Shown one piece after another: positions 37,388 to 56,959 of a stretch of DNA of 64,000 nt. The first letter of the stretch is position 1. Each line of letters starts with the position of its first letter. The notes beneath the pieces are model-generated. The model made no database searches, was not told the origin of the DNA, and worked only from the letters and a program-made list of their open reading frames with translations. Location: contig DRFQ01000009.1 in assembly GCA_011050465.1 (NCBI GenBank), positions 334-64,333 of the forward strand, given 5' to 3'. Source of the DNA: Candidatus Nealsonbacteria bacterium (GTDB taxonomy: Bacteria; Patescibacteriota; Minisyncoccia; Minisyncoccales; RBG-13-36-15). The translations under genes were made by a program, and so were the position numbers.

Positions 37388-37461
37388 TGCGGGGTCGTCT
37401 AACGGTAGGACGGATGCCTCTGGAGCATTTAATCTAGGTTCGAATCCTAGCCCCGCAGCCA
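37388..37461 (+). tRNA. tRNA-Gln (CUG), CCA encoded
   Basis: U1-A72 acceptor TGCGGGG/CCCCGCA, D arm GTCT-AACGGTA-GGAC, anticodon arm GATGC-CTCTGGA-GCATT, T arm CTAGG-TTCGAAT-CCTAG, then GCCA. Confidence 0.9.
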
Positions 37462-37487
37462 TCATATGCTAAGTCAGGTGACCGAGA
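37456..37487 (+). repeat. Left direct repeat (att-like): cagccatcatatgctaagtcaggtgaccgaga
   Basis: It matches 46194-46225 at 30 of 32 positions and overlaps the tRNA-Gln 3-prime end. Confidence 0.85.
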
Positions 37488-37581: not shown

Positions 37582-38043
37582 ATGAATTTCGAAAGCATTA
37601 TTAAGGGAAGAATTGCCAGTATTATTACTAGCTTAATGTTTCAAGACGCTGATTATTTAGTCGTAAATTACGGACATGAAAGTATCCCTGATCGCCTTGT
37701 ACAATTAGGCGTCTCAAAAGACGGTAAGGCCGCGGAAGTATTACTCACTAGCCCATCTTTTATTGTCATGAATAAAAAGGATCGTTCCGTTAATTTGCTC
37801 CAAATCAGATACCAAGGTGAGGGCGCTAGTGGTAGAAATATTATTTGGAGATATGAAAAAATGCAGAGATATTGGCCTGGTAGTCATTTATTATTAGTTC
37901 GTCCCAGAAAGCCTTACTTTTTTATAATGACCGTAACAAAAAATGGGCCTAAGCCCATTCCATTAATAGATTCTAAAATTTTCAATGTAGATAAGGGAAT
38001 AGTTTTGAAATTTGGGCAATTCGTTAAGAAGTTTCTTTCATAA
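37582..38043 (+). CDS. Hypothetical protein (153 aa), first gene of the element
   Basis: An intact ORF with no confident motif. Confidence 0.4.
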   Translation: MNFESIIKGRIASIITSLMFQDADYLVVNYGHESIPDRLVQLGVSKDGKAAEVLLTSPSFIVMNKKDRSVNLLQIRYQGEGASGRNIIWRYEKMQRYWPGSHLLLVRPRKPYFFIMTVTKNGPKPIPLIDSKIFNVDKGIVLKFGQFVKKFLS

Positions 38044-38066: not shown

Positions 38067-38102
38067 CTTTGACTACACTGCCTACAGGCAGTGTAGTCAA
38101 AG
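38067..38102. repeat. Perfect palindrome, 17-bp arms with a 2-nt centre
   Basis: ctttgactacactgcct-ac-aggcagtgtagtcaaag. Confidence 0.9.
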
Positions 38103-38263
38103 AGGAGACATTTGTCAATACCAAATCCGTAGTCATTATGAATAACATCAATGAAACTGATATCGATAGCAATGATTTTTTGGAAGGAATAAGAGTCATG
38201 CTCAATTATATTTTATCAGAAAATAGGAGAAAGCGCAAGCGCAAAAATAGTTAGAAAGCAAAT

Positions 38264-38291
38264 AAAAACCGCTTTATAATAGGCGGTTTTT
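38264..38291. terminator. Bidirectional hairpin terminator
   Basis: aaaaaccgc-N10-gcggttttt, with A/T runs on both sides. It lies just past the recombinase stop. Confidence 0.55.
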
Positions 38292-38298
38292 ATTTTTA

Positions 38299-39615
38299 CT
38301 ATTTTTCCAGCAGGATTTTTTTGTCTTTTAGAATTAGTTTGCTTTTCAGAAAGAAGAGGAATTCTCTTTTTTCAACCAGCGTTCCTTCTCTGAGAAGATA
38401 CTTTGCGTAATTTCGTATATCGATATCAACGTTATTATTTTCTTTTTTATGGCCCAGTACTCCGATCCTGAATTTATTGAATCTTGTGATTTCCTGTTCT
38501 ATTCTTGATTTTACCCCTAACTCATCTAAATCAATTCTATCCATCAATTCTATCAACTCGTTGATTAAATTTGGTTCATTGACAGCAGGATTTTTACAAT
38601 CAATATTTCTGGCTTTCGTGCAGAAATAATAGACGTGGCGGTTTACACCACCATCTTTTAATTTTTTGAACTTTTCATCAGCTGATATTCCCGAACCGCA
38701 ATAGCCGCATTTAATCAGTTTCGTGAAAGCGAATTCTTTGCTCTCGGTTTTTGGAATAAAGTTTTCATTAAGCGTCGTCTGAACCCTATCAAATAATTCC
38801 TTATTTATAATCGGCGTGTGCTTGCCAATATACCACTTGTTACTTCCCACTGGATATTCAAACTCTCCGTAATAGAAGTGATTTCGGAGAATGAGATAAA
38901 TGTTGGCAAGCACAAGCAGCTTGCCGTTTTTAGTTTTGAATTTTATCTCTCTCAGCCAACGATATACCTTACGTCCGCTCCATTGTTCGCTTGCCACTCT
39001 TTCAAACATCTGCTTTATAACCGGAGCTCTCTTTGGGTCAATCCTCGCCTGGCACTTTTTATCAGCGTGTTTTTCGTTGAGGTAGCCTGTAGGAGCGACT
39101 CCCGGCCTAAGTCCCATCTCGCATCTGGTTCGCAGCCCTCGCTTCACATTTACCGCTTTGTTGTCATTCTCGAGCTTAGCTTGAGATCCCAATATCATAA
39201 GCATGAACTTTTCGTTCGGGTTATTAGTGAATCTTTGCCCGAATGTCCTTATTTCCAATAGAAGCTTTTTATCCATCAAATCTACGATAGAACCTAAGTC
39301 TCCGGCATTTCTGCTCAGCCGGTCTGGAGCCCAAGTTAAAATACCATTGTATTTTCCTTCTTTTATTTCAGCCAGCATTTGATTAAAAATCTCTCTTTGG
39401 CCGACTTCCTTTGAAGAATGAGATTCGCGCTTGATATCTACAACTTTGAGGTTGTCTTTTTCTGCCAAAACCAACATCTCTTTTACCTGCGATTCTATAG
39501 AAAGAGTTTGTTTATCTTCTGCTTCAGTTGATTTTCTGGCATACAGGCAGTAACGTATATCAACCTTAACAGGGGATTGAAAATTATTAAGTCGTTCTTT
39601 TGTCGCTTGTTCCAT
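38299..39615 (-). CDS. Large serine recombinase
   Basis: N-terminal resolvase domain (CLYARKSTEAEDKQTLSIESQ), a recombinase domain, and a zinc-ribbon CGYCGSG...YYFCTK. Length 438 aa. Confidence 0.9.
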   Translation of the reverse strand: MEQATKERLNNFQSPVKVDIRYCLYARKSTEAEDKQTLSIESQVKEMLVLAEKDNLKVVDIKRESHSSKEVGQREIFNQMLAEIKEGKYNGILTWAPDRLSRNAGDLGSIVDLMDKKLLLEIRTFGQRFTNNPNEKFMLMILGSQAKLENDNKAVNVKRGLRTRCEMGLRPGVAPTGYLNEKHADKKCQARIDPKRAPVIKQMFERVASEQWSGRKVYRWLREIKFKTKNGKLLVLANIYLILRNHFYYGEFEYPVGSNKWYIGKHTPIINKELFDRVQTTLNENFIPKTESKEFAFTKLIKCGYCGSGISADEKFKKLKDGGVNRHVYYFCTKARNIDCKNPAVNEPNLINELIELMDRIDLDELGVKSRIEQEITRFNKFRIGVLGHKKENNNVDIDIRNYAKYLLREGTLVEKREFLFFLKSKLILKDKKILLEK

Positions 39616-39768: not shown

Positions 39769-39816
39769 AATTAAGGTAGTTTTAAGAGAAATCAAACTTA
39801 TTCACAGGTTAATCTC

Positions 39817-39846
39817 TTGACACCCGACCAAATGGTCGGGTATTAT
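39817..39846 (+). promoter_or_regulatory. Promoter of the lexA-like/hsdM operon with an embedded palindromic operator (cccgaccaaatggtcggg, 39823-39840)
   Basis: TTGACA (39817-39822), an 18-nt spacer made up of the 18-bp palindrome, then TATTAT (39841-39846). ATG 39853 lies 6 nt after the -10 box. Confidence 0.5.
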
Positions 39847-39852
39847 AATATA

Positions 39853-40500
39853 ATGACTATAAAAAAAGAAATTATTACCAGAAGACAAAAAGAGTTATTA
39901 TCTATTATTTACGAATATATTAAGGACACTGGATATCCGCCAACCTTTGAAGAAATGAGAAAAAGATTAAATGTGTCCTCAAACCAATCGATTATCGATC
40001 TTTTGGTAAAATTAGAAAAACAGGGAGTTATTAAACGAAATGAGTCTTCGGCTCGAGGTTTAGCAATGTTGCCTTTAGGATATAGGATGCTTGGCCAACC
40101 GTCACTTGCTGCTTTTTTAGGCATTACAAGTGCAGGAGCACCCATTGAGGCTATAGAAATATCGGGAGAATGGCAATCAGTTTCTTCGGATATTAAAAAA
40201 CTTAAGGACGAAGTTTTTCTTTTGAAAATTTCCGGTGATTCAATGATTAATGCCGGTATTGAAGACGGCGATGTTGTTTTAGTAAAGGATCAAAAAGAAT
40301 TTTCCTCTCGCGATATTGTCTTAGCTCAAGTAGGGGACGACTCGACTATCAAGCGTTTTATTTCAGAAGATACACCACCATATGTTTATCTTAAGCCGGA
40401 AAATCCAAAATATAATATTATTCTTTTTACCGAAGAAAGTCGACTTATAGGAAAGGTTATTTCTGTTTTTAAAAATGGCTATTGGAAGCCGGTTAAATAA
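39853..40500 (+). CDS. LexA-like S24-peptidase repressor
   Basis: N-terminal winged-helix region (LLSIIYEYIKDTGYPPTFEEM..SNQSIIDLLVKLEKQGVI), an Ala-Gly cleavage-site context (SAGAP), Ser in GDSM and Lys in TIKRF. Confidence 0.85.
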   Translation: MTIKKEIITRRQKELLSIIYEYIKDTGYPPTFEEMRKRLNVSSNQSIIDLLVKLEKQGVIKRNESSARGLAMLPLGYRMLGQPSLAAFLGITSAGAPIEAIEISGEWQSVSSDIKKLKDEVFLLKISGDSMINAGIEDGDVVLVKDQKEFSSRDIVLAQVGDDSTIKRFISEDTPPYVYLKPENPKYNIILFTEESRLIGKVISVFKNGYWKPVK

Positions 40501-40509
40501 TTAAAATCT

Positions 40510-42465
40510 ATGCCAACTAAAAAACTCAATAAAACCAAAGAAATAATTGATAAAATTTTTCGCGACCCAGAAATAACCTATGGTTTAAAAGAATTCGAAG
40601 AAATTGACTTCGAAAAAGTTTTAGAAATTACCGAGGAAAGTCGAGATAAATTTTACATTAAAGACATTAAATCAAAAAAACTAAAACTTGTTTTTGATGA
40701 ATCAAAAAAGCAGGGTAAACCCGAAGAAATTATTCGACAACTTTGGCTCTACAAACTTAATACTCAGTATAAATATCCTTTTGATCGTATAGATACAGAA
40801 AAAAGTATTCACTTTGGTCGAGAGATTCACGCCAAAGCTGCTGACATCGTTGTTTATAAAAAAGATAAAATCACGCCGTTTATTATCCTAGAGATTAAAA
40901 GTCCAACCGAAAAGAAAGGAATTGAACAACTTAAAAGCTATCTTTCTGCCGAAGGTTCAGAAATAGGGGTTTGGTCAAATGGTAAAGAGCGAGTAATATT
41001 ATATAGACCATATCCAAAAGAGTTTCAAGATTCTTTAAGTGATATACCTCGAGCCGATCAAACCATCGACGATTTATTTGAAATCAAAAAAACTTGGTCC
41101 GAATTAAATCCAAAATTTGATTTTGTTAGAATTATCAAACGTATAGAAGAATTAGCTCTCGCTGGTTCTGGAGCAAATGTTTTTGAAGAAATCTTTAAAA
41201 TAATTTATGCCAAACTCTATGATGAAAAACTGGCACGTGAGCGGCGCGAGAACCAAGAAGTGCTTTTTAGGAAATATCGTGATCCCGAGAAAACATTTGA
41301 GGTGATCAACGACCAGCTTTTTAAAAATGCAATTAAAGAATGGCCAGATACTTTTGAAGAGTCAGATCGTATTAAGCTTTCTTCAGCAAGGCTTAATATC
41401 TGTGTGCCATTTTTGGAAAATGTTCGTCTTTTTGAATTAGGGAAAGGCGAACTGGAAATTATTGATAGTGCGTTTGAATATTTAATCACGGAAGTTTCAA
41501 AAGGTAAAAAAGGACAGTATTTTACACCTCGGCATGTCATCAAAATGTGTGTAAAGATGACGAATCCTAAAGCTGACGAATATATTATTGATCCCGCCTG
41601 TGGCTCCGGCGGTTTTCTTTTACATACAATGTATTATGTTTGGGAGAAATTAACCACAGAGGCAGCAAAAAATGATTATGCAGCAAAGTACCTCTTTGGG
41701 TTGGATTTTGACGAGAATATGCGTCGTATTTCCCAGGCTTTAATGCTTATTGCAGGTGATGGTAGACATCATATTTTTAAACGTGATTCACTTGATGCTC
41801 GGGACTGGCAAGGAGTAGAAAGCGAGGAGGCACGAGTAGCGTTGAAGCCGCTTTTATTAAAATTGGAAAATCCATCTGAAGCAAAAGAAAATCAACTTAC
41901 TTATAGGTATTTGAATTTTGACATTTTATTGACCAATCCGCCTTTTGCCGGAGAAAATCCCGAGTCAGGATTGTTGCGCCAATATGAACTTGCTAAAAAA
42001 GATGGCAAATTAAAGAATAATGTTGAGAGGCACATTCTTTTTATTGAGCGTTCTCTTGACGTCATTCGTCCTGGCGGCCGAATGGCAATCGTCTTGCCGC
42101 AAGGCGTCTTAAATAATACTAATATGGAGTTTGTCCGAGAATATGTTCTTAGTAAAGCAAGGATTTTAGCCGTAGTCGGACTCCATGTTAACACATTTAA
42201 ACCTCATGCTGGAACCAAAACTTCTATTTTATTTTTACAAAAATGGAATGAAAAAGAAAAACCACCTAAAAATTATCAAATTTTTATGGCGGTTTCAAAA
42301 AAGCCAGGCAAAGATAATTCCGGAGATTATGTGTATAAAAAAGATGATAAAGGAAATTATATTCACGATGCCAAAGGCCGTAAAGTTTTAGACCACGACC
42401 TCGGTGAGATCGCCGAAGCATTTGTTGATTTTGCCAAAAAACAAAAATTTAGTTTTTGGGAATAG
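40510..42465 (+). CDS. hsdM: Type I-like N6-adenine DNA methyltransferase (HsdM) fused to an N-terminal HsdR_N/PD-(D/E)xK-like domain
   Basis: Motif I DPACGSGGFL and motif IV NPPFAG. The N-terminal region AADIVVYKKDKITPFIILEIKSP...QLKSYL...WSNG resembles the HSDR_N nuclease-like fold (D...ExK). Confidence 0.85.
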   Translation: MPTKKLNKTKEIIDKIFRDPEITYGLKEFEEIDFEKVLEITEESRDKFYIKDIKSKKLKLVFDESKKQGKPEEIIRQLWLYKLNTQYKYPFDRIDTEKSIHFGREIHAKAADIVVYKKDKITPFIILEIKSPTEKKGIEQLKSYLSAEGSEIGVWSNGKERVILYRPYPKEFQDSLSDIPRADQTIDDLFEIKKTWSELNPKFDFVRIIKRIEELALAGSGANVFEEIFKIIYAKLYDEKLARERRENQEVLFRKYRDPEKTFEVINDQLFKNAIKEWPDTFEESDRIKLSSARLNICVPFLENVRLFELGKGELEIIDSAFEYLITEVSKGKKGQYFTPRHVIKMCVKMTNPKADEYIIDPACGSGGFLLHTMYYVWEKLTTEAAKNDYAAKYLFGLDFDENMRRISQALMLIAGDGRHHIFKRDSLDARDWQGVESEEARVALKPLLLKLENPSEAKENQLTYRYLNFDILLTNPPFAGENPESGLLRQYELAKKDGKLKNNVERHILFIERSLDVIRPGGRMAIVLPQGVLNNTNMEFVREYVLSKARILAVVGLHVNTFKPHAGTKTSILFLQKWNEKEKPPKNYQIFMAVSKKPGKDNSGDYVYKKDDKGNYIHDAKGRKVLDHDLGEIAEAFVDFAKKQKFSFWE

Positions 42466-42470
42466 AAATT

Positions 42471-44369
42471 ATGAAATTATTTCTTAAAGCAATTGAATTC
42501 GAAGATTACAGAAATATAAAAAATGGCTCAAGACTAATTTTTGAGCCTATTACTACTTTAGTTGGAGCAAATGAGAGCGGGAAGAGTAATATAATTAGAG
42601 CCATACAATTGTTATCCGAGGATTTTAATGAAAATGACACGAAAATGGGCAGTATTAGGGCATCAAGAAACGAAATGCCATTACTTAGGTATTTTTTTGA
42701 ACTTAAAAGTAAAGACCTGTTCGGATATTTTAAACAAAGTATTAAAAATTTCAGGGATAAAAATCTGATTTGTTTAATCGTAAGTGGTGAAACAAATGAA
42801 TTAATGTTATCAGATCAACGTTTTTCATTAAGGGAAATTGAATATAGAAATCAATGGAAGAATACTAGTGGTCAGCCCATGAAATTTAAGGCTCGCAAAG
42901 GAAAAGAGATAGAATTACAACAAAACGAAAAAATTTTTGGGGATAATGATAATAAATTTGCTATAGCGAAACTAGCTAGAGAGAATAAAATAACGAAACT
43001 TACGACTGAAGAAATAGACTCAGATGTTATAGATAAAATTTTTAAAGATTTTCTTCCAGAAATAGAATACTGGGAATATGACCAAGATAAACATTATCTT
43101 CCAGACCATGTATTCTGGGATAAATTTTTAACAGCGCCAGATAACTTTTTACCAGTTAAAAATTTATTTTTAATTGCTTGCTCCGAAGGAAATCTAACAG
43201 ATTTTAATACTGCCTTATCTAGTTTTAAAGGTAAAGATCATGAGATTCAAAAATATCTTGATGATGTTAGTAAGTCGCTTAACAAAATTATCAAAAAAAC
43301 ATGGAAGCAAAGCAATATAGAACTACAACTTTTTTATCAAACAGATAAATTGAGATTTGATATATACGAAGGAGGTCGCAGAACTCCTCCAAGCGTAAGA
43401 AGCGATGGTTTAAAATGGTTTCTTTCCTTTTTGCTTGATTTTAGATCAAGAGGTGAGTTGCAAAATAAGATTATTTTATTTGATCAACCGGGTGAGAAAT
43501 TACACCCCGGTGGTCAAAAAGAGTTACGAGAGCGTTTTACAGAAATTGCTTTAAAAAATCAAGTGATTTTTGCAACCCAATCTCCATTTTTAATTGATCG
43601 TAATTCTTGGTCAAAAGTAAAATTTTTACAAAGAAAAAATGGAGACCCTGAAATTAAGCAACCTACTAAATATGATGTAAAGAACGATGAATTACTTCGG
43701 CATTCACTTGGGTATTCACTGGCAGATGTGGGACAAGCCAATGACTTTAATATTGTCGTAGAGGGTTATACCGACCAGTTTTTATTATTAGATATAGGAA
43801 GAAGACTTAATGAAATAGCGTCTTATTTAGAAAAGAAACCGATTATTAATTTAAATAAGATAGCTATCTTTGATTCGCGTGGATTTACCACAATTAAAAA
43901 AAGGGTTGATGAATTACTACAAGCTAATTTGCATGCCATCGGCCTTTATGATGGCGATGATGTTAGTAAAAAACGGTTCTCTCAAGATCGTAAATCTAAG
44001 AGATTTAGAAATCTTCTATTTTCCTTAGATGAAATAGTTGATCAGAATAATTATAAAACGATTGAGGATTTAGTCCCTGAAAGATTATGGGAGAAATCAT
44101 GCAAGGAATATTTTAAAAAGAATCGGTCTAAATTAACTAAGAAAAACTTTTGTCATCCTCGTTGGGGAAAAATTAAGGAATGGTACAAGAATAACTATAA
44201 TACCGAAATTACCCGAAAAGAGAAAGAGAGTCTATGGGAAGTTATTTTTGATAATTGGGATCAATATTTTGATAGCGTAAAAGATATTTCAAAAATTTCT
44301 GAGATTAATATAACAAAACAGGCATTAGAAAGTTTAGCTAAAAAAGTTGCTCGTGGAAAGAATAAATAA
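42471..44369 (+). CDS. OLD-family protein: ABC-type ATPase fused to a C-terminal TOPRIM nuclease domain
   Basis: Walker A GANESGKS, SDGLKWFLSF (signature-like), ILFDQPGEKLHP (Walker B region), and TOPRIM VVEGYTDQ ... GLYDGDD. The start is taken at ATG 42471 (MKLFLK). Confidence 0.75.
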   Translation: MKLFLKAIEFEDYRNIKNGSRLIFEPITTLVGANESGKSNIIRAIQLLSEDFNENDTKMGSIRASRNEMPLLRYFFELKSKDLFGYFKQSIKNFRDKNLICLIVSGETNELMLSDQRFSLREIEYRNQWKNTSGQPMKFKARKGKEIELQQNEKIFGDNDNKFAIAKLARENKITKLTTEEIDSDVIDKIFKDFLPEIEYWEYDQDKHYLPDHVFWDKFLTAPDNFLPVKNLFLIACSEGNLTDFNTALSSFKGKDHEIQKYLDDVSKSLNKIIKKTWKQSNIELQLFYQTDKLRFDIYEGGRRTPPSVRSDGLKWFLSFLLDFRSRGELQNKIILFDQPGEKLHPGGQKELRERFTEIALKNQVIFATQSPFLIDRNSWSKVKFLQRKNGDPEIKQPTKYDVKNDELLRHSLGYSLADVGQANDFNIVVEGYTDQFLLLDIGRRLNEIASYLEKKPIINLNKIAIFDSRGFTTIKKRVDELLQANLHAIGLYDGDDVSKKRFSQDRKSKRFRNLLFSLDEIVDQNNYKTIEDLVPERLWEKSCKEYFKKNRSKLTKKNFCHPRWGKIKEWYKNNYNTEITRKEKESLWEVIFDNWDQYFDSVKDISKISEINITKQALESLAKKVARGKNK

Positions 44370-44375
44370 CTACTT

Positions 44376-45737
44376 ATGGTTACTCATCTCATAATCCAAA
44401 AATCACAACTAGAAGGCGGTTTGCGTCTTGATGCGGAATATTATCAACCGGAATATTTAGAGTTAAAAAATAGATTGTGTAAAACCGAATCATATAAATT
44501 CTGGAAAGATATTAAAGGAAACTTTATTACGGGACCCTTTGGCTCAGAATTTAATGTTGAAAACTATGTTTTAAACGGGAAATATCGGTATGTTCGTGGA
44601 AAAGACGTTAAAGAATTTTTCCTTTCTGACGATGATAACGTATATATACCCCAAAAAGACTTTGAAAGACTTAAAAAATATTCATTAAAAGAAAATGATA
44701 TTTTAATTTCAGTTGTTGGAACGCTTGGAAATGCTGCTATTATTGATAATTCTGTTCCTCCAGCAATTTTTAGCTGTAAGAGTACAGTTTTTCGTAGCGA
44801 ATCGATAAATCCTTACTATTTTATTAGTTATCTTAATTCGCTTTATGGTCGAAAATTATTAGGCCGTAATGTACGCGGCGCAGTTCAGACAGGACTTAAT
44901 ATTGATGATTTGAGATTATTGCCAGTATTTATTCCACCAAAACAACAACAGGAATTGATTGGTTCGTTGGTCTCGAAGGCAAAGGAGGAATATGAAAATA
45001 CTAAATTATTTTATTCTCAAGCTGAAGATTTACTTTTAGAAGAATTGGGTTTAAAAGATTTTGAAGTCGGGGATGATTTGTCTTATGTTGTTAATCTTTC
45101 AGATTTAAAATTAGTTAACCGTATTGATGCCGAGTACTTTCAGCCGAAACACGAGAAATTAATATCAAAAATTAAAAACCAAAATATAAAAAAACTTGCT
45201 GATTTAGTTTCAATAAAAAAGGGGATTGAGATAGGAAGTGAGAAATATCAAAAAGAGGGAAAGTTATTTGTTCGAGTGAGCAATCTTTCAAAACAGGGGA
45301 TTATTGATAAGGATCAGAAATATTTAAGCGAAGAATTATATCAGAAACTAAAAAAAGATTTTGAGCCAAAAGCAGGAGAAATTTTACTAACTAAAGATGC
45401 AACTCCGGGCATGGCTTATTTATTAAAAGAATCAATTGAGGGAATAATTGCCGGCGGAATTTTAAGATTAAAACCCGAAACAAAAATCGAACCAGAATAT
45501 TTAGCTTTAGTGATAAATTCTATTGTTGGTCAATCACAAGTAGAACGAGATACCGGTGGTTCAGTAATTATCCACTGGCGACCAGAACAAATTAAAAATT
45601 GTTCAATTCCAATTTTACCTAAATCTACCCAGCAAAAAATTGCTGATTTGGTTCGCCAATCCCACGAAGCTCGCAAAAAAGCAAAAGAATCATTAGAACA
45701 AGCCAAACAAAAAGTCGAAGAATTAATTGAGAAATAA
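44376..45737 (+). CDS. hsdS: Type I restriction-modification specificity subunit (two target-recognition domains)
   Basis: Duplicated TRD openings RLDAEYYQPEY and RIDAEYFQPKHEKL. Conserved helical spacers (QQQELIGSLV, QQKIADLVRQ). Confidence 0.85.
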   Translation: MVTHLIIQKSQLEGGLRLDAEYYQPEYLELKNRLCKTESYKFWKDIKGNFITGPFGSEFNVENYVLNGKYRYVRGKDVKEFFLSDDDNVYIPQKDFERLKKYSLKENDILISVVGTLGNAAIIDNSVPPAIFSCKSTVFRSESINPYYFISYLNSLYGRKLLGRNVRGAVQTGLNIDDLRLLPVFIPPKQQQELIGSLVSKAKEEYENTKLFYSQAEDLLLEELGLKDFEVGDDLSYVVNLSDLKLVNRIDAEYFQPKHEKLISKIKNQNIKKLADLVSIKKGIEIGSEKYQKEGKLFVRVSNLSKQGIIDKDQKYLSEELYQKLKKDFEPKAGEILLTKDATPGMAYLLKESIEGIIAGGILRLKPETKIEPEYLALVINSIVGQSQVERDTGGSVIIHWRPEQIKNCSIPILPKSTQQKIADLVRQSHEARKKAKESLEQAKQKVEELIEK

Positions 45738-45748
45738 TCAAAAATATT

Positions 45749-46018
45749 ATGACAAAAATTAAAGTTAAAAAAATAACAGATGGTGACACCTTTCAGGGCA
45801 CAAGGGGTGGATTTTACCGCTTAGCTAATGTTGATGCTCCCGAAAAAAGAGAGCGGGGGTATCAAAAGGCCAAAGAAACCTTAAAAGAACTTATTGAAGG
45901 CGAAAAGCTTATTGTTAAAGTTGAGGGCACATCTTATGGTAGAAAAGTTGCAACCGTCAGAATACCAGGCGAAAAAACGAGTATTAATGAAAAAATGAGG
46001 CGTAGGGGTTATAAATAG
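45749..46018 (+). CDS. Small staphylococcal-nuclease-like (SNase/thermonuclease fold) protein
   Basis: ITDGDTF, YRLANVDAPE and SYGRKVATV match the SNase Ca-binding and catalytic residues. At 89 aa it is shorter than typical SNases. Confidence 0.65.
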   Translation: MTKIKVKKITDGDTFQGTRGGFYRLANVDAPEKRERGYQKAKETLKELIEGEKLIVKVEGTSYGRKVATVRIPGEKTSINEKMRRRGYK

Positions 46019-46193
46019 AATTTCCTCAGGTCGTTTTTAAAATGGTACGTCATACTATCCCAAATGGAACACCCCCTTTCTGTGTCCCATTTGTCCCATT
46101 TTAGCTTAAAAAGCCCCGACCGAGACGCCTAAATGGAACACGGCCAAAATCGCCCAAAACACCCTTAAAACTGGGGTTCAGAACTGAGGTACA

Positions 46194-46225
46194 CAGCCAT
46201 CCTATGCTAAGTCAAGTGACCGAGA
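46194..46225 (+). repeat. Right direct repeat (att-like): cagccatcctatgctaagtcaagtgaccgaga
   Basis: 30/32 match to 37456-37487. Confidence 0.85.
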
Positions 46226-47224: not shown

Positions 47225-47352
47225 ATTCGTCCCTGACCGAGACGCGTCAATGAGACACGCCTCAAACCCCCTAATTTCCCCTTAAAACACAGGTTCTAGA
47301 CTAAGGATGTCAGCAACAGTCAGCGCAGTATCGAGGCCGACCGAGAGGCCTC

Positions 47353-49556: not shown

Positions 49557-49712
49557 CAAATAGAAAATTACGCGAGCTTATCCTAAAAGCGGTGCGACAT
49601 CAAGTCAAACCGCCTTTTTGTTACTAAACACCCAACAATTCCCTTGATTGTTTCAACACAAGCTCCGGATATTGAACTAATTCTGCCCAGCTAATGGTTC
49701 TAACGTCGTCCA

Positions 49713-49725
49713 AGCCCCGCAGCCA
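49713..49725 (+). repeat. Exact 13-nt copy of the tRNA-Gln 3-prime end (agccccgcagcca)
   Basis: Identical to 37449-37461. It abuts the start of the 147-nt repeat. Confidence 0.8.
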
Positions 49726-49866
49726 AGCACAACTCGGTATCGAGGGCGACCGATTCCCGTACAAAATTGGTTCGAGTCCAGGTGCCGTCGCGGTACTAGA
49801 CCGAGGCGGTTCGAGTCGCAGCCCCCCAGCACCAGTCAGCGCAGTATCGAGGCCGACCGAGAGGCC
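49720..49866 (+). repeat. 147-nt direct repeat, copy A
   Basis: It differs from 51151-51297 at 5 positions by eye. It contains two degenerate tRNA T-arm-like segments (ggttcgagtcc, ggttcgagtcg) and ends in gaccgagaggcc. Confidence 0.9.
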
Positions 49867-50032
49867 TATTTTGAAGCTATTTTCTTGACGGGTCTAGGAC
49901 GTCCTAAACCCGTACCCGTCTAGGAATAGAACTCTACGAACAAAAAAGGAGCAGTTCGAGTAGTAGCGCCAGAGCATTTCTACGGATTTCTTCGGATTTT
50001 AAACTTTCAATTCTTTAATATAATTTATGTAA

Positions 50033-51359: not shown

Positions 51360-54300
51360 ATGGCTAAAATTGTTAAAAATAAATTAGGGAATTTTTTGGC
51401 GATTTGCCTTATCCTTTTGATGGTGGCGGGTTGGATTTTTTCTGGCTGGCCACAAGTGTGGCACGATCCTCCTTTTCCTCCAAAAGTTGAAGACGTACAT
51501 GCTACAACAAGAACAATTGAGCAGCAGATAAATATTATTGACCAGGAGTATGAGTCGGAGGTGCTGGGTTCTTATAAGCCAACCGATAATAGTCTTGGCC
51601 TGATCCGTTGGGATAGTGCCAAATATCCTGGCGCTGTGGTTTATTTTGAAGCAGTAGCAATGGTGTTTGCCGAGACCGATACTGTCAAGGTAGCTCTTTT
51701 TAGCTCTGACGGAACACAAGTTGCAAATAGTGAAGTAACCCATTCTAGCGCTGGTAATTATACAAGAGTAAGATCTAGCGCCCTTACTTTGGGTACGCTC
51801 CCCAATTTGCAGAGCAATACCGATTATTCTGTAAGGGTAAAAGCCGTGAATGATTGGGTTTCGCTCAAAGCCGCCCGCCTCATAATTGTCCAGTCCGACG
51901 GCACAAAAATTACAGATACCGTTACTCAAATTGAAGCTGGGGATAATCAGTCTACGACGGCAACCTCAGGAAGTCCGAGCACCCTTGCAAACCCAAATTA
52001 TTATATGTTTGACAAGGATATGTTTTCAGGAACATACGGGACAGACATTAACGCTTATTTTGAGGCGTCTCTTAAAGCTTCAGCAATACTCTCCGCTGCC
52101 GCTTATTATTTCAACGCCTACGACAGCGGTACCGCCTGGACCAACGCCCCAGCGCAGATGGTTGACGGTTCAACGAGCAACTTCGCGGTAACCGGCGGCT
52201 CCGATGAAAATCAACGCAACACCGCAAGCACGTGCGACGCCACATGCGGTGCAAAAAGCGAGACAATCACAAAAGTGGAATTAAGAGTTTATGCTTGCCA
52301 AGATAACGCTGATAACGGATGGATTACCTTAACCCCGTATTTTTCCGGTTCATCGCAGGGAGACGGGCACACTTGGTCGGCGGTTCCCGACGGGAATAGC
52401 TGTGAAACCGGGGTTGCCGCCTGGAGCCCTTATTTTGACATTACAAGCGATACAAATGCTCCGGGCACTTGGGGATGGAGCGATGTAGAAAACCTTGATG
52501 TTAATGTGTTCGGTGACAGACAGGGAGGAGCCGATGTTATCCACGCGGCGCAAGTCGATATTCAAGTAACGTATGAACCGGGTACAACATCTACCGCATA
52601 CGCAGAGCTTTATAACCGCACCAATAGCGCAGTAGTTGGTAATAGTACTATTTCTGTGAATAGCACTAGTTGGACGCGAGTTCGTGGCGCAAGTGCTTTG
52701 AACTCGTCAGACAACTGGGATATAACCAATGATGATGAATATGAAGTGCGCATTTATTCTTCAAGCGGTTCTGACGCCGCCTATATTGCTAATGCTAAAA
52801 TTGTTATTGAACAGAGTATTTCAGGGGGTATAGATAAACTGGAGACGGTGCATCAGTATAATAATACGTTGGTAAGTCTCGGAGGTGATGTGGTAACTGT
52901 TTATGCTCAATTAACTATTTCAGGAGGTGCTGCCATCTCTGGTAGTAAGCAAAGTACTGGTAGTGGCAGTTATACGCGGTTGAGAAGCAGTGGTTTAACA
53001 TTATCTACTAATGATTTTGATGTTGAGTTAAGCGTGAACGATTCAGCATATACGGAACAAGGATTTATGAACAAATATGATTCTACTAATTGGGTGGGTG
53101 GAACTTTTGTATATTTATTTGAAACAATACTTAAAAATGTTGTTACAGTTAGAGAGGACTCCTCAACTTCCTGGCTTATCATTCAGATATCTGGGCTTGC
53201 TTCTATTATCGCAACTACTACCATTGGTGATGGTACTGACCCCAGTGATTCAACGGTTGCACCGGAAAGCGGGATTACTGATCTTGATGCAGTCACTTTC
53301 GTTACCAACACCGGCACTGATTCCATTACTGCCGTAACCGTTACTCTTGGGGCAGGTGATTCAGATAATTTGAGCGAGGTGCGGATTACAAACGATAATG
53401 GATTAACGACATATTTTTCCGCAATTTCCAGTCCCTCAAGTGACACACTCAATTTTAGCGGTGGCACACCAATACCGGTTACAGCTTCATCAACGCAGTT
53501 TAAGGTCAGAATCACTCCAGAAACTCACGCCAACATGCCAGCTCCCCAGGGAGCAGAATATGCTATAACCGGAACCATTACCGCTTTTACCAGTACCAAC
53601 ACCCAGGCAGGAACAGATACCGGCAGTGCCATGATAACCATTGACAACTTATCGCCCAATAACGCCACATCCACAAGTGGTAGTGTTACTTCAGATACTG
53701 AAATAACAATCAACTGGACGACTTCCAACAGTACCGATTACAATCGCTCAATCGTACTGCGGTGGCAAGCCTCCCTTCCTGGGGCCGATGTGCCAGCAGA
53801 AGGTACTAATTATAGTCTTGATGATACCATTGGCGGAGCAAAGGTGGCTTGTGTAGAGAATACCGGTACTTCTTCTACGGCCTACAGCGGGGTTGATGGT
53901 TCTGGTGCAGATGAGTGTAGCACTACCGCTTTGTCTGTCGGTACGCAATATTCATATAAACATTTTGAGAAGGATGATAACGGAAACTGGAATACAGGAT
54001 TTACGAACGCCAGCTCTCCTTTAACGACAACCGGCGGCGCAACTTTAACCTTTAGTATTTCCGACAACGATATATTCTTTGGTGATTTGAGCGCTTCGGC
54101 GTCTAAATGGGCAGATAATACCGCAGACGGAAGCACTACAGCAGTGGTTGCCCATACGCTCGCCGCCTCAACAAACGTCACCAACGGATACACCATAACC
54201 GTAAACGGAACCACGCTTACTTCGGGTGGTGATACCATTATTGCCATGGCTTCTGAAGCTATTCTTACCACCGGGCAAGAAGAGTTTGGTCTGCGCATTA

Positions 54301-54527
54301 CGGCTTCTGGCGGAAACGGTACGGTTGATGCTGATTATGACAATAGTCCAGCTGACAGCTATGCCCTCATTACTGGTAACTTTCCGGATGTGATTGCAAC
54401 AGACGCAGACGGCGATGACGTGAGCACCACATATTCGCTCTACTATGCAGCAAACATTACCGCAAACACCGAGGCCCACACCGACTACACTTCCAGCCTA
54501 ACCTACGTTGCAACCGGAAACTTTTAG
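51360..54527 (+). CDS. Large (1055 aa) Thr/Ser/Asn/Gly-rich cell-surface protein with N-terminal membrane anchor, internal repeats, FN3-like module and a C-terminal domain shared with the next gene
   Basis: TM helix LAICLILLMVAGWIF. A motif repeated three times (YTRVRSSALTL / WTRVRGASAL / YTRLRSSGLTL). ITINWTT...YSYKHF is FN3-like. The last 190 aa or so are paralogous to 54678-55817. It is GC-richer than the core genes. Confidence 0.7.
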   Translation: MAKIVKNKLGNFLAICLILLMVAGWIFSGWPQVWHDPPFPPKVEDVHATTRTIEQQINIIDQEYESEVLGSYKPTDNSLGLIRWDSAKYPGAVVYFEAVAMVFAETDTVKVALFSSDGTQVANSEVTHSSAGNYTRVRSSALTLGTLPNLQSNTDYSVRVKAVNDWVSLKAARLIIVQSDGTKITDTVTQIEAGDNQSTTATSGSPSTLANPNYYMFDKDMFSGTYGTDINAYFEASLKASAILSAAAYYFNAYDSGTAWTNAPAQMVDGSTSNFAVTGGSDENQRNTASTCDATCGAKSETITKVELRVYACQDNADNGWITLTPYFSGSSQGDGHTWSAVPDGNSCETGVAAWSPYFDITSDTNAPGTWGWSDVENLDVNVFGDRQGGADVIHAAQVDIQVTYEPGTTSTAYAELYNRTNSAVVGNSTISVNSTSWTRVRGASALNSSDNWDITNDDEYEVRIYSSSGSDAAYIANAKIVIEQSISGGIDKLETVHQYNNTLVSLGGDVVTVYAQLTISGGAAISGSKQSTGSGSYTRLRSSGLTLSTNDFDVELSVNDSAYTEQGFMNKYDSTNWVGGTFVYLFETILKNVVTVREDSSTSWLIIQISGLASIIATTTIGDGTDPSDSTVAPESGITDLDAVTFVTNTGTDSITAVTVTLGAGDSDNLSEVRITNDNGLTTYFSAISSPSSDTLNFSGGTPIPVTASSTQFKVRITPETHANMPAPQGAEYAITGTITAFTSTNTQAGTDTGSAMITIDNLSPNNATSTSGSVTSDTEITINWTTSNSTDYNRSIVLRWQASLPGADVPAEGTNYSLDDTIGGAKVACVENTGTSSTAYSGVDGSGADECSTTALSVGTQYSYKHFEKDDNGNWNTGFTNASSPLTTTGGATLTFSISDNDIFFGDLSASASKWADNTADGSTTAVVAHTLAASTNVTNGYTITVNGTTLTSGGDTIIAMASEAILTTGQEEFGLRITASGGNGTVDADYDNSPADSYALITGNFPDVIATDADGDDVSTTYSLYYAANITANTEAHTDYTSSLTYVATGNF

Positions 54528-54677
54528 TTTATAGGTTTTCCACAACCAGCTTATTGATGTTGTTGCTTGATACTGGTATTCTGTTATAATAAATAAAAAC
54601 CATAAAAAGGTTACGTTTCGTATCAGCCAATATAACTATTCCTTTCCCTTGGTCGATAAGGAATACAAAAACTGCCA

Positions 54678-55817
54678 ATGAACCAACTATATTTTATAAG
54701 AAGAAACATAGATATAAAAAAAGTCCTTACCAGCTTGGGGCTTATTGTCGCAGTGCTGGTGTTGTTGATAGCGCCGCCCGTGCAGATTGCAAGGGCAGCT
54801 ACCTTGCTGAACATGAGAGACACTCTCACTACCGTGAAGGCAAGTACCGTAACTGACCATGAGATTATATTCCGCACGCCAACGGGAGCTGATGAGTCCA
54901 CAGACACCATCATCATTGACATTGGAGCTACCGATACCTCGTGGAATACCAGCAGCTTAGCGATTGGTGACGTGGATTTGGCGCACTCAGCCGGTGCCCA
55001 GAGCGACTGCGACGCTCCAACATTCAGCAACGAGGAGACACTTGCAGCTTCCGCTACCGCCACCGATTGGCAACTGGACTTTGACACCACAAACGATATC
55101 CTTACCTTCACTGCCCCAACAGACGGCGTGGGAGCCGCTGCTATTGCAACTAACGCCTGTGTGCAGATACAGATTGGTACCAATGCTAGTGGAGGATCAA
55201 ACCAGATTACCAACAGCACTGCGGGCAGCAAGAATATAGACATTTTGGGTACCTTTAACGACACCGGTACCATAGTGGTAACGCTCATAGCTGACGATAT
55301 AGTAGTGACAACTGCCACGGTCGTTGCTTCTCTAACGTTTACCGTTGATGATAATGATATCTTTTTTGGCACCTTGGGCGCTGGGGCAGCAAAATGGGCA
55401 GATAATACCGCAGACGGAAGCACTTCGTCAGTCGTTGGCCACACCATGACCGTAGGTACCAACAGTACATCCGGCTACAGTGTTACTTACAACGGTACCG
55501 CGCTCACGTCTGGTTCAGATAAAATTTCCGATAGCGGCAACACCACCATTACCGGAGATGCGGACGGAACTCCCGGCTCAGAGGAGTTTGCCATTGGGGT
55601 TACCGTGAGCGACAACGCGACTATTGCTTCTGGATATGAGCAGGCCTCCAACAACTTCAAGTTTGTTGAAAGCACCACTGCCACACTTGTCTCTGAAACT
55701 ATTCAAACCGCCGCAGAAACAATCTCTGTCTACTACATAACCAACATTGCCGCAAACACCGAGGCCCACATCGACTACACTTCCAACATAACCTACATTG
55801 CAACCGGGAACTTCTAG
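54678..55817 (+). CDS. Secreted surface/fibre-subunit-like protein, paralogous C-terminal domain
   Basis: Signal peptide ending IARA-ATLL. The C-terminal domain (DNDIFFG..KWADNTADGST...TEAHIDYTSNITYIATGNF) aligns with the C-terminus of the 1055-aa protein. Confidence 0.7.
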   Translation: MNQLYFIRRNIDIKKVLTSLGLIVAVLVLLIAPPVQIARAATLLNMRDTLTTVKASTVTDHEIIFRTPTGADESTDTIIIDIGATDTSWNTSSLAIGDVDLAHSAGAQSDCDAPTFSNEETLAASATATDWQLDFDTTNDILTFTAPTDGVGAAAIATNACVQIQIGTNASGGSNQITNSTAGSKNIDILGTFNDTGTIVVTLIADDIVVTTATVVASLTFTVDDNDIFFGTLGAGAAKWADNTADGSTSSVVGHTMTVGTNSTSGYSVTYNGTALTSGSDKISDSGNTTITGDADGTPGSEEFAIGVTVSDNATIASGYEQASNNFKFVESTTATLVSETIQTAAETISVYYITNIAANTEAHIDYTSNITYIATGNF

Positions 55818-55861
55818 GAGCTCTCTTGCTCGATGCCGTGCTGGCGTGATAGCATAACATC

Positions 55862-56959
55862 ATGAAATTTTGGGTACTCATTGGCTTTTTTTTGGCTATT
55901 GGGGTAATGCTTTTACCTCAAGGAGCACAGGCTCTCACCGTTTCCCCGGTGCGGGTGGAACTTGCTGCCGACCCCGGAGCAAACGTGAAAGGCGTGATTT
56001 TGCTTATTAATGAACAGGAAGGAACCAGAACTTTTTATTCTTCTCTTGAAAATTTTGAAGCTCTGGGAGAAACAGGCACACCAACATTTATTGAAAGCGC
56101 AGAAGGACTGGCAACGTGGATTGAAACTGCTTCTCAAGTAACCATAGAGCAAGGAGAGAAAAAAGAAGTTCCCTACACCATTATAGTACCCCAGGACGCT
56201 GACCCCGGAGGCCACTTTGCAGCCATTTTCTGGAGCACTTCTCCTCCCCGAGCAGAAGAGGAAGGAGGGGTTTCTATTGGGGTTAAACTCGGTGTTCTCA
56301 TATTGCTCCGCGTAAGCGGAGAAATAGAAGAGGAAGGAGGACTTCTAGAATTTAACGCTCAAGATAAACAAAGCTTTTTCAGTTCGTTACCCATAACGCT
56401 TACCTACCGTTTTCAAAACGGTGGGGGTGACCGCGTGAAGCCAGAGGGAGAGATAACGATAAAGAATATATTTGGCAGAATCTCAGCTGTTCTCCCAGCA
56501 AACGAATCTGAGGGAAATGTATTGCCCCAGTCTATTCGGAAGTTTCAGGTGACCTGGGATATAACCCAGAAGGAGGGCGAGCTCAATACGAGGCAGGCAC
56601 AAAAGGATGATGAGAAAGTTGGATTTTTTGGAGCAGTCAAAAGACAATGGAGCGATTTTCATTTTGGTAGATATACTACTCAGCTAAACTTAAATTATGG
56701 GGCGGAAAATGAAAAAGCTGAAGCTGGCTTCAGCTTTTTTGTTATTCCCTGGCAGCTTCTGAGTATTATACTTTTTGTGGTGATGGTTGTTGGTCTTCTT
56801 AGTAAAATAGCAATAAAGAGATATAACCAATGGATTATCGCAAGGGCCGTACAGATGCAAGTACCTAAAGAAATCAACACAACCAAAGCGAGGAAGAAAA
56901 TAAAAACAAACCTTCGTAAAAACAAAAGAAGCCAAGTAAAACGAAGTATTAAAAGATGA
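55862..56959 (+). CDS. Signal-peptide protein with two beta-sandwich-like halves, a C-terminal TM helix and a basic tail (DUF916/DUF3324-like, chaperone-like)
   Basis: AQA-LTVSPVRVEL start, PGGHFAAIFW, then a C-terminal TM helix (LLSIILFVVMVVGLL) and a K/R-rich tail. The architecture resembles CscA-type partners of WxL proteins. This is an inference. Confidence 0.55.
   Translation: MKFWVLIGFFLAIGVMLLPQGAQALTVSPVRVELAADPGANVKGVILLINEQEGTRTFYSSLENFEALGETGTPTFIESAEGLATWIETASQVTIEQGEKKEVPYTIIVPQDADPGGHFAAIFWSTSPPRAEEEGGVSIGVKLGVLILLRVSGEIEEEGGLLEFNAQDKQSFFSSLPITLTYRFQNGGGDRVKPEGEITIKNIFGRISAVLPANESEGNVLPQSIRKFQVTWDITQKEGELNTRQAQKDDEKVGFFGAVKRQWSDFHFGRYTTQLNLNYGAENEKAEAGFSFFVIPWQLLSIILFVVMVVGLLSKIAIKRYNQWIIARAVQMQVPKEINTTKARKKIKTNLRKNKRSQVKRSIKR

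Follow-up and report, generated by a model that had tools for sequence, protein, structure and literature searches.

We analysed a 64,000-nucleotide stretch (hereafter the window) of a genome of Candidatus Nealsonbacteria, a lineage of the candidate phyla radiation (CPR). The source contig is 362 kb long (DRFQ01000009.1, positions 334 to 64,333 of the forward strand). The window carries an operon that we consider fairly probable to be a LexA-controlled type IIB-like restriction-modification (R-M) system on a mobile island, with an autonomous OLD-family nuclease gene embedded in it as second-line cargo. In order, the genes encode a LexA-like repressor, a subunit joining a nuclease to a methylase (RM; its gene and family are called M), the OLD-family protein, a specificity subunit (S) and a very small protein with the staphylococcal nuclease fold (mini-SNase). 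A preliminary description, made from the sequence and its open reading frames (ORFs), had seen the last four of these as a type I-like hsdM/OLD/hsdS/SNase operon starting at 40510, and the ORF list agrees with it on their positions. The operon begins one gene further upstream, with the LexA-like gene that ends 9 nt before M. The OLD ORF called mechanically spans 42456-44369, and an identical 632-aa database protein is consistent with translation from ATG 42471, which lies 5 nt beyond the stop codon of M. With this start, the gaps from M to the mini-SNase gene are 5, 6 and 11 nt.

Type IIB-like features of RM and S

The RM chain combines an N-terminal PD-(D/E)xK endonuclease, a helical connector and a gamma-class N6-adenine methyltransferase (motifs DPACGSGGF and, at residues 476-479, NPPF). 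The preliminary description had noticed this nuclease domain on its HsdM, and both Pfam (HSDR_N_2) and alignment to the BsaXI endonuclease confirm it. The best relative of RM in the PDB is RM.BsaXI (8w0p; E 1.9e-30 from the sequence by itself, improving to 5.2e-41 when a family profile is used). This match covers the endonuclease domain and the methylase regions, with the connector between them; the best type I HsdM in the same search reaches 6e-21 and matches only around the methylase motifs. Cryo-EM work on BsaXI showed that cleavage requires E73, D90, E105 and K107 and that type IIB enzymes conserve them (PMC11997821). These residues align to E97, D112, E128 and K130 of RM, all of which, together with the AdoMet motif and NPPF, are invariant in an alignment of 24 homologues. 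Scored with the hsdM model TIGR00497, RM receives 49.8 bits, below the cut-off of 242.75 that marks an HsdM equivalog. These sequence and profile matches make the RM subunit of a type IIB-like enzyme the best reading of the "HsdM". The fused nuclease-methylase is an already known architecture and is not new.

The S subunit matches the PADLOC model Specificity_I over its full length (3.3e-49) and the NCBIfam model MAD5 with 168 bits. A search of the PDB returned only weak matches to target-recognition domains, which were uninformative. The locus thus has the elements of type IIB architecture, namely a nuclease-methylase polypeptide with the E/D/E/K residues, an S with two target-recognition domains and no translocase. 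Relatives of S are 34-70% identical to it, versus 63-86% for M. In two related loci, PD-(D/E)XK (Cas4/RecB-like) nuclease genes lie directly downstream of S (L005:13348-14597 and L088:6531-7742), the position that the mini-SNase gene has in the window; the same region of L005 also holds a DUF2726 gene.

By homology to type IIB enzymes, the two target-recognition domains of S would define a bipartite site, recognised by two RM and one S, and the complex would methylate adenines on host DNA. Unmethylated DNA would be cut by the PD-(D/E)xK domain fused to the methylase, so that no HsdR motor would be needed.

Absence of HsdR

As the preliminary description stated, no HsdR is encoded in the window: none of its 49 ORFs of at least 150 aa is HsdR-like. 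Among the ten longest ORFs outside the locus, Pfam identifies seven as housekeeping genes (PheT, GyrB, GatB, ThrRS, DnaE, an amidase and a radical-SAM enzyme); the other three have no informative match, and none of the ten has a helicase domain. No HsdR or Res gene was found in 28 related metagenome loci, and about 25 CPR loci carry RM+S pairs that do without HsdR. Homologues of M also occur in cultured bacteria. On plasmids of Klebsiella, Trichormus and Skermanella they form two-gene M+S modules, in Tessaracoccus the homologue is followed by an unannotated ORF of S-like size, and in Picosynechococcus it is a single 1179-aa protein. The stretches examined around these five contain no annotated HsdR. 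Because the related metagenome loci and the plasmid homologues likewise lack HsdR, its absence is the norm for this M family and not an anomaly. The HsdR subunit that defines a classical type I R-M system is missing from both the window and the related loci.

One proposal of the preliminary description was that non-HsdR nucleases supply the restriction arm of a methylation-guided system. This holds in part. The fused PD-(D/E)xK domain matches the BsaXI endonuclease and keeps its four essential residues, while neighbourhoods and tree (below) give no support to OLD and SNase as parts of one such machine. Placing M in the nuclease-methylase fusion class removes the paradox of a "type I system without HsdR". 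It may also explain part of the excess of hsdM-like methylases (7,391) over restriction enzymes (4,737) in a recent CPR survey. The methylase family is very abundant in CPR, and more than 7,800 of the 8,000 candidates that we scored are relatives of M.

A variable slot between RM and S

Among relatives with an M 63-86% identical to that of the window, the distance between the RM and S genes ranges from none (L102, where the genes overlap and the slot is empty) to 1.8 kb. The slot may hold DUF3800, NYN nuclease, NERD, trypsin-like protease, DUF4760 or other membrane proteins, or ORFs without a recognisable domain. PADLOC assigns the DUF3800 cargo to PDC-M04A and the NYN cargo to HEC-09 and NYN. 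Since the slot is empty or filled by unrelated genes in relatives, and since relatives of the window's OLD occur without M and S, comparative genomics shows OLD to be an autonomous second-line defence gene and swappable cargo in this slot. The position would give OLD co-regulation and co-inheritance with the R-M system.

Seven slot ORFs have no significant Pfam family (L087:3206-4631, L088:3746-4930, L090:5674-6432, L094:9979-10443, L097:10634-11457, L100:5685-6212 and L101:2975-4018), and those tested gave no convincing PADLOC match. By guilt-by-embedding, at least seven domainless slot ORFs are candidate new defence genes. A conserved CPR cassette with a LexA-type regulator and a single hypervariable slot can thus be used as a discovery tool. 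Upstream of the L102 cassette (L102:3296-7246, minus strand) we also noted a UvrD/AddA-like helicase-nuclease with an intein (Intein_splicing/Hint) in its helicase domain.

The OLD-family nuclease and its relatives

The OLD-family assignment made in the preliminary description is well founded: PADLOC identifies Old, the ATPase and TOPRIM residues are in place and the predicted fold agrees. Invariant in 29 homologues are G32-K38 (Walker A), D338 (Walker B), S311 and G313 (signature), and, in the TOPRIM domain, E431, D494xD496 and E532/D533. AlphaFold models the protein with a pLDDT of 88.7, and among PDB structures the model is closest to OLD of Thermus scotoductus (6p74, E 1.5e-15). Judged from residues and model, the enzyme looks active. 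By analogy to P2 Old, Thermus scotoductus OLD (TsOLD) and GajA, it would act by ATP-regulated TOPRIM cleavage or degradation of DNA.

The gene neighbourhoods speak against a dedicated M-OLD-S system such as the preliminary description had envisaged; it had itself named a random placement of OLD genes relative to hsdM/hsdS in relatives as refuting evidence, and the neighbourhoods show this. The closest OLD relative is P0002 (83% identity), and the neighbourhoods surveyed begin at 72% identity. Homologues in L081 and L082 (72% identity) and L083 (71%) lack an R-M gene next to them, and the homologue in L114 (64%) follows an HTH gene and has no M or S neighbour. More distant OLDs occur within type III operons; the gene order is mod-OLD-res in L085, and L001 and L008 have mod-res-OLD with a large serine recombinase next to the operon. 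Still others neighbour type II R-M genes (L084, L120) or housekeeping genes, or are carried on islands with a recombinase.

Apart from the window, just one locus has the order M-OLD-S: L005, from a Harrisonbacteria genome. Its OLD is 69-70% identical to a type III-linked OLD and only about 29% identical to that of the window, and the two fall into separate clades of the tree. Because the OLDs come from different clades, the RM-OLD-S layout arose at least twice, independently. Neighbourhoods and tree together rule out co-evolution of OLD with M and S.

The preliminary description had also offered the alternative of an M-S methyltransferase guarded by an OLD/PARIS-like sensor. Here the PD-(D/E)xK domain would not be a restriction nuclease, and OLD would be an abortive-infection guard that fires when phage anti-restriction proteins attack M-S. 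Anti-restriction proteins do trigger ABC ATPase/TOPRIM systems, with PARIS responding to Ocr and Stp and Old responding to inhibitors of RecBCD. A guard located inside a type I locus has a precedent in PrrC, the methylase excess in the CPR survey would fit methyltransferase-only modules, and PARIS (AriA ABC ATPase plus AriB TOPRIM) shares with the window's OLD its ATPase/TOPRIM chemistry and a conceptual link to the sensing of anti-restriction. We find this explanation improbable. The four nuclease catalytic residues are invariant across the M family, arguing for an active nuclease. AriA models match only the ATPase half of OLD (residues ~10-381, the N-terminal half); PARIS is encoded by two genes, with AriB a TOPRIM/DUF4435 protein, whereas the window has one fused 632-aa protein whose best PADLOC model is Old. 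No evidence points to PARIS-like tRNA targeting by the window's OLD. Its relatives function in contexts without an M-S partner, and the other types of slot cargo do not fit a single guard logic.

A LexA-like regulator and its promoter

The first gene of the operon encodes a winged-helix DNA-binding domain and an S24 autopeptidase, and scores 147.5 bits against the TIGR00498 lexA model, above the cut-off of 110.95 for a LexA equivalog. Its translation contains the autocleavage motifs SAG/AP (the Ala-Gly site), GDSM (the serine) and IKRF (the KR lysine). A LexA homologue with 62-82% identity occurs upstream of M in all 24 related loci that include this region, and immediately upstream in 23; in L107 the gap between the two genes is about 420 nt. 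The promoter, a strong one, has a shared layout as well, with TTGAC..GTCGGGTA..T (-35 box, GTCGGGTA, -10 box) in 20 of 21 related cassettes. Beyond LexA, M and S, the loci do not share genes. We consider LexA part of the unit because it lies upstream of M in every one of the 24 loci while the flanking genes differ, and because the promoter and operator are conserved.

The CCCGACCAAATGGTCGGG palindrome in the promoter spacer is a candidate operator. The LexA-like protein would bind it there, and probably represses its own operon. Because the autocleavage motifs are intact, release after DNA damage is possible, and the operon may be inducible by such damage. Our literature search on LexA together with R-M in Patescibacteria found nothing.

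Two further observations concern this region and LexA-type domains. A DnaA-box-like motif, TTATCCACA (allowing up to one mismatch), is located upstream of the LexA promoter at 39798-39806. Nine of 21 cassettes (the window, L086, L087, L088, L097, L101, L104, L106 and L107) have it 16-20 nt before the -35 box, compared with about 3% expected by chance, and two more have it nearby (L103, at -9, and L091). Separately, an 886-aa ORF fuses LexA DNA-binding, S24 peptidase, N6_Mtase/Eco57I and weak TaqI_C domains (L127:3216-5876, minus strand; also in L128-L130). It was seen in the four loci read, where it is divergent and lies beside a mini-SNase gene and xseA/xseB; the mini-SNase adjoining it is carried on at least 24 contigs. 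This fusion, independent of the window's family, hints that LexA-type domains and DNA methylases are functionally connected in CPR bacteria.

A family of mini-SNases

The SNase fold reported by the preliminary description is supported by PF00565 and by alignment to staphylococcal nuclease. The alignment covers only residues 16-101 of staphylococcal nuclease, so that the 89-aa protein is not a complete domain of ~135-149 residues with C-terminal helices. Residues D21, R35, D40, E43 and R87 of the nuclease align to D13, R24, D29, E32 and R65. Within the family D13, R24 and E32 are invariant, R65 is nearly so and D29 varies. The family comprises 92 clusters, mostly 85-92 aa long and mostly from Patescibacteria, which share these catalytic residues; a truncated pseudogene is thereby ruled out.

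Mini-SNase genes occur in three unrelated neighbourhoods: the window, after a GmrSD-like gene (L124), and between the LexA-methylase fusion and xseA (L127-L131). Only the gene itself (±30 nt) is common to the window, L124 and L127, which rules out a larger syntenic core. Membership of the cassette is ruled out as well, given that no SNase is found downstream of S in more than 20 relatives. The SNase and the ORFs around it gave no match in PADLOC or NCBIfam. With its relatives, the 89-aa SNase makes up a genuine family of conserved mini-proteins that is not tied to the operon, and we treat the window's copy as a separate small gene at the end of the island.

A putative island at tRNA-Gln

The operon is bracketed by repeats derived from the 3' end of tRNA-Gln (Table 1). 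The two copies are 78% identical over 51 nt, and their last 32 nt agree at 30 positions. The ~8.7 kb between them comprises a 153-aa ORF, a large serine recombinase and the operon, and has a lower GC content than the sequence outside. This region looks like an integrated island at tRNA-Gln, with more insertions downstream, and the recombinase is its probable mobility gene. The recombinase is not a member of the LexA-M-S cassette, being absent from 28 M-related loci.

Table 1. Features of the locus and type III operons that contain related OLD genes. Coordinates are those of the window unless a locus is named.
Feature	Coordinates	Strand	Evidence and remarks
tRNA-Gln (CTG)	37388..37461	+	ARAGORN; Rfam tRNA, 60.9 bits; putative insertion target and left island border
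Direct repeat copy 1, attL-like	37437..37487	+	Last 25 nt of tRNA-Gln plus 26 nt downstream; repeat family D1
153-aa ORF	37582..38043	+	Within the putative island; no match in Pfam, PADLOC or NCBIfam
Large serine recombinase	38299..39615	-	Pfam Resolvase, Recombinase, Zn_ribbon_recom; NCBIfam CcrB-like
Promoter, TTGACA-18-TATTAT	39817..39846	+	11/12 consensus match; palindrome CCCGACCAAATGGTCGGG (39823-39840) in spacer
LexA-like repressor, first operon gene	39853..40500	+	Pfam LexA_DNA_bind, Peptidase_S24; TIGR00498
RM subunit, 651 aa	40510..42465	+	Pfam HSDR_N_2, residues 71-180 (1.1e-19); N6_Mtase, residues 317-599 (6.2e-37)
OLD-family nuclease (ABC ATPase + TOPRIM), 632 aa	42471..44369	+	Pfam AAA_21/AAA_15; PADLOC Old, 1.4e-21
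S subunit, 453 aa, two target-recognition domains	44376..45737	+	Two Pfam Methylase_S stretches
Mini-SNase, 89 aa, last gene before right repeat	45749..46018	+	PF00565, 3.1e-8
Direct repeat copy 2, attR-like	46175..46225	+	tRNA-Gln 3' end region; repeat family D1
Type III-operon OLD loci	L001:4789-11887; L008:6061-11785; L085:262-6465		

Could the R-M genes serve mainly as an addiction module, which stabilises the serine-recombinase island through post-segregational killing while OLD and SNase hitch-hike as cargo without a defence role in the host? The setting in an island with tRNA-derived repeats and a recombinase is compatible with this, homologous M+S pairs occur on small plasmids beside partition and toxin-antitoxin genes, and OLD relatives are often near serine recombinases. 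We judge this highly improbable as the main role. Addiction and defence are not mutually exclusive, the diversification of S relative to M is typical of phage-driven selection, and defence-candidate families are represented among the slot cargo.

Degenerate copies of the tRNA-Gln 3' end and flank continue downstream of the island (46114-46225, 47231-47351, 49709-49725 and 49808-49867). They suggest two further small tandem insertions (46.2-47.35 kb and 47.35-49.87 kb) with uncharacterised ORFs. The repeats are not RNA genes, as tRNA-Gln is the sole Rfam match. Between the 153-aa ORF and the 3' end of the recombinase gene, the segments 38067-38102 and 38260-38295 hold a perfect 17-nt inverted repeat and a 15-bp terminator-like hairpin. 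Elsewhere in the window, GC content reaches 0.46-0.49 from 51360 to 56000 versus ~0.37 outside this part. Pfam gives no match for a 1055-aa ORF located there (51360-54527), which is rich in Thr, Ser, Ala and Gly; at 54.6-55.8 kb, two long ORFs on opposite strands overlap each other. Regarding a phage origin, IMG/VR scans with M and with the OLD alignment gave no relatives.

Discussion

So, is the locus a LexA-controlled type IIB-like R-M system with OLD as embedded cargo? A number of points weigh against this reading. The best full-length PADLOC model for M is labelled "Type I methyltransferase", and the best NCBIfam match is not a type IIB model but Mad2 of the methylation-associated defence system (MADS). 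MADS itself needs extra genes for defence, and its ATPase Mad3 is genetically linked to Mad2 and Mad5. RM lacks the C-terminal "paddle" of BsaXI, two residues of which are also required for cleavage (PMC11997821), and cleavage by its fused PD-(D/E)xK domain is a prediction from homology. The AlphaFold model of M, made from 24 close homologues, is unusable (pLDDT 46, pTM 0.31), and because it is too poor for a fold search the argument for RM rests on sequence and profile matches. OLD relatives adjoin several R-M types more often than pure chance suggests, and OLD may therefore have some functional link to restriction in general. Repeats as long as those flanking the island are more typical of tyrosine integrases than of serine recombinases, and for this reason the mobility mechanism of the island is uncertain.

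Parallels with known systems

The window's operon and the type IIB systems BsaXI and BcgI share a single chain of nuclease, connector and gamma N6-adenine methylase with the E/D/E/K residues, a separate HsdS-like subunit with two target-recognition domains, and the lack of an HsdR or translocase. BsaXI is longer (916 aa versus 651 aa for the window's RM, which has no C-terminal paddle), and only the nuclease and methylase regions can be aligned. The window's operon further differs in its LexA-like repressor and in the cargo gene between RM and S.

MADS (mad1-8; Maestri et al., bioRxiv 10.1101/2023.03.30.534895) provides a parallel in gene order, with the methylase gene mad2 followed by mad3 (an ATPase with a putative TOPRIM domain), mad4 (DUF4276) and mad5 (S). 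The DUF4276 of Mad4 is TOPRIM-like (PMC12065111). In both cases a regulator comes first, and methylase and S are separated by an ABC ATPase with a TOPRIM-type nuclease. Mad2 (3e-89, 300 bits) and Mad5 (2.6e-49) are the best NCBIfam matches of M and S, the PADLOC mad2, mad3 and mad5 models also match, and the window's genes are packed with gaps of 5-6 nt. The operon could then be a reduced MADS-like machine, in which M (Mad2-like) and S (Mad5-like) mark self and sense unmethylated sites and OLD, in the role of Mad3/Mad4, is the required effector. The genetics of MADS agree with such interdependence: mad3 and mad4 are needed for defence, and mad5 can be deleted only if mad2 or mad3 is deleted too.

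We nevertheless regard a MADS-like machine as unlikely. The NCBIfam scores do not reach the curated cut-offs for equivalogs (Mad2 300 vs 720, Mad3 28 vs 420 and Mad5 168 vs 400 bits). Genes for the Mad6 kinase, the DptG-like Mad7 and the HerA-like Mad8, all mandatory in the MacSyFinder model of the MADS authors, were not found within the operon or next to it. Other cassettes have unrelated genes in the slot, or none in the case of L102, and the window's OLD clusters with OLDs that have no adjacent R-M genes, the RM-OLD-S arrangement having been assembled from different OLD clades. The regulator is LexA-like, unlike the HTH protein Mad1 of MADS, there is no DUF4276 gene, and the fused ATPase-TOPRIM protein is not a Mad3 orthologue (28 bits). 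The locus resembles the front half of MADS to some degree without being a member. According to the MADS authors, Mad3 and Mad4 cannot be detected reliably in every system, which would fit a cargo slot at this position in MADS too. A bolder proposal, which we hold to be doubtful, is that LexA/RM/[slot]/S forms a dedicated modular CPR platform, a minimal plug-and-play MADS in which a type IIB-like complex that reads methylation is coupled functionally to the slot's occupant (OLD, DUF3800, NYN, NERD, protease or membrane protein); the R-M complex or the LexA-type regulator would license these interchangeable effectors. A related and equally doubtful possibility is that, in nucleotide-auxotrophic CPR cells without RecBCD, R-M-linked OLD (and the mini-SNase) may finish off and recycle restricted DNA. 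If true, this role would explain why OLD occurs beside type II, IIB and III R-M alike.

Embedding of defence genes has been described for type I R-M, BREX, DISARM and Hma operons, and includes ATPase-TOPRIM, NERD and NYN genes (Payne et al. 2024, bioRxiv 10.1101/2024.01.29.577857). As in these cases, and in PrrC, TgvAB and Campylobacter rlo, the window has an autonomous gene between the subunit genes of a methylation-based system. The types of slot cargo correspond as well: ATPase-TOPRIM, NERD and NYN match HEC-01, HEC-04, HEC-02 and HEC-09, and DUF3800 matches PDC-M04A. The differences are that the host system here appears to be a type IIB-like RM+S and not type I, BREX or Hma, that it belongs to a CPR lineage, and that it has a single fixed slot and a LexA-like regulator. 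Given the MADS gene order and the described embedding of defence genes in R-M operons, the combination is less unprecedented than the preliminary description supposed, which was aware of no earlier account of it.

A review presents Class 1 OLD genes as single genes that do not lie near other defence genes (PMC10568477). The window's OLD is Class 1-like by architecture. Like P2 Old and TsOLD, it joins ABC ATPase and TOPRIM in one polypeptide with conserved catalytic residues, has 6p74 as its best fold match, and lacks a UvrD-like helicase, a retron or reverse transcriptase, and a split (AriB) partner. It is unlike TsOLD in that their sequence similarity is weak (E 1.9e-5). Contrary to the published description of the class, it and several of its relatives lie inside or beside R-M operons, and the Class 1 view is thus qualified for this subfamily, which repeatedly associates with R-M operons of three types.

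Overall, the locus does not represent a new kind of immune system, as its components and the embedding principle are already known from the systems above. Two things are new: the conserved CPR cassette, which combines a regulator with one hypervariable slot, and the repeated association of this OLD subfamily with R-M systems.

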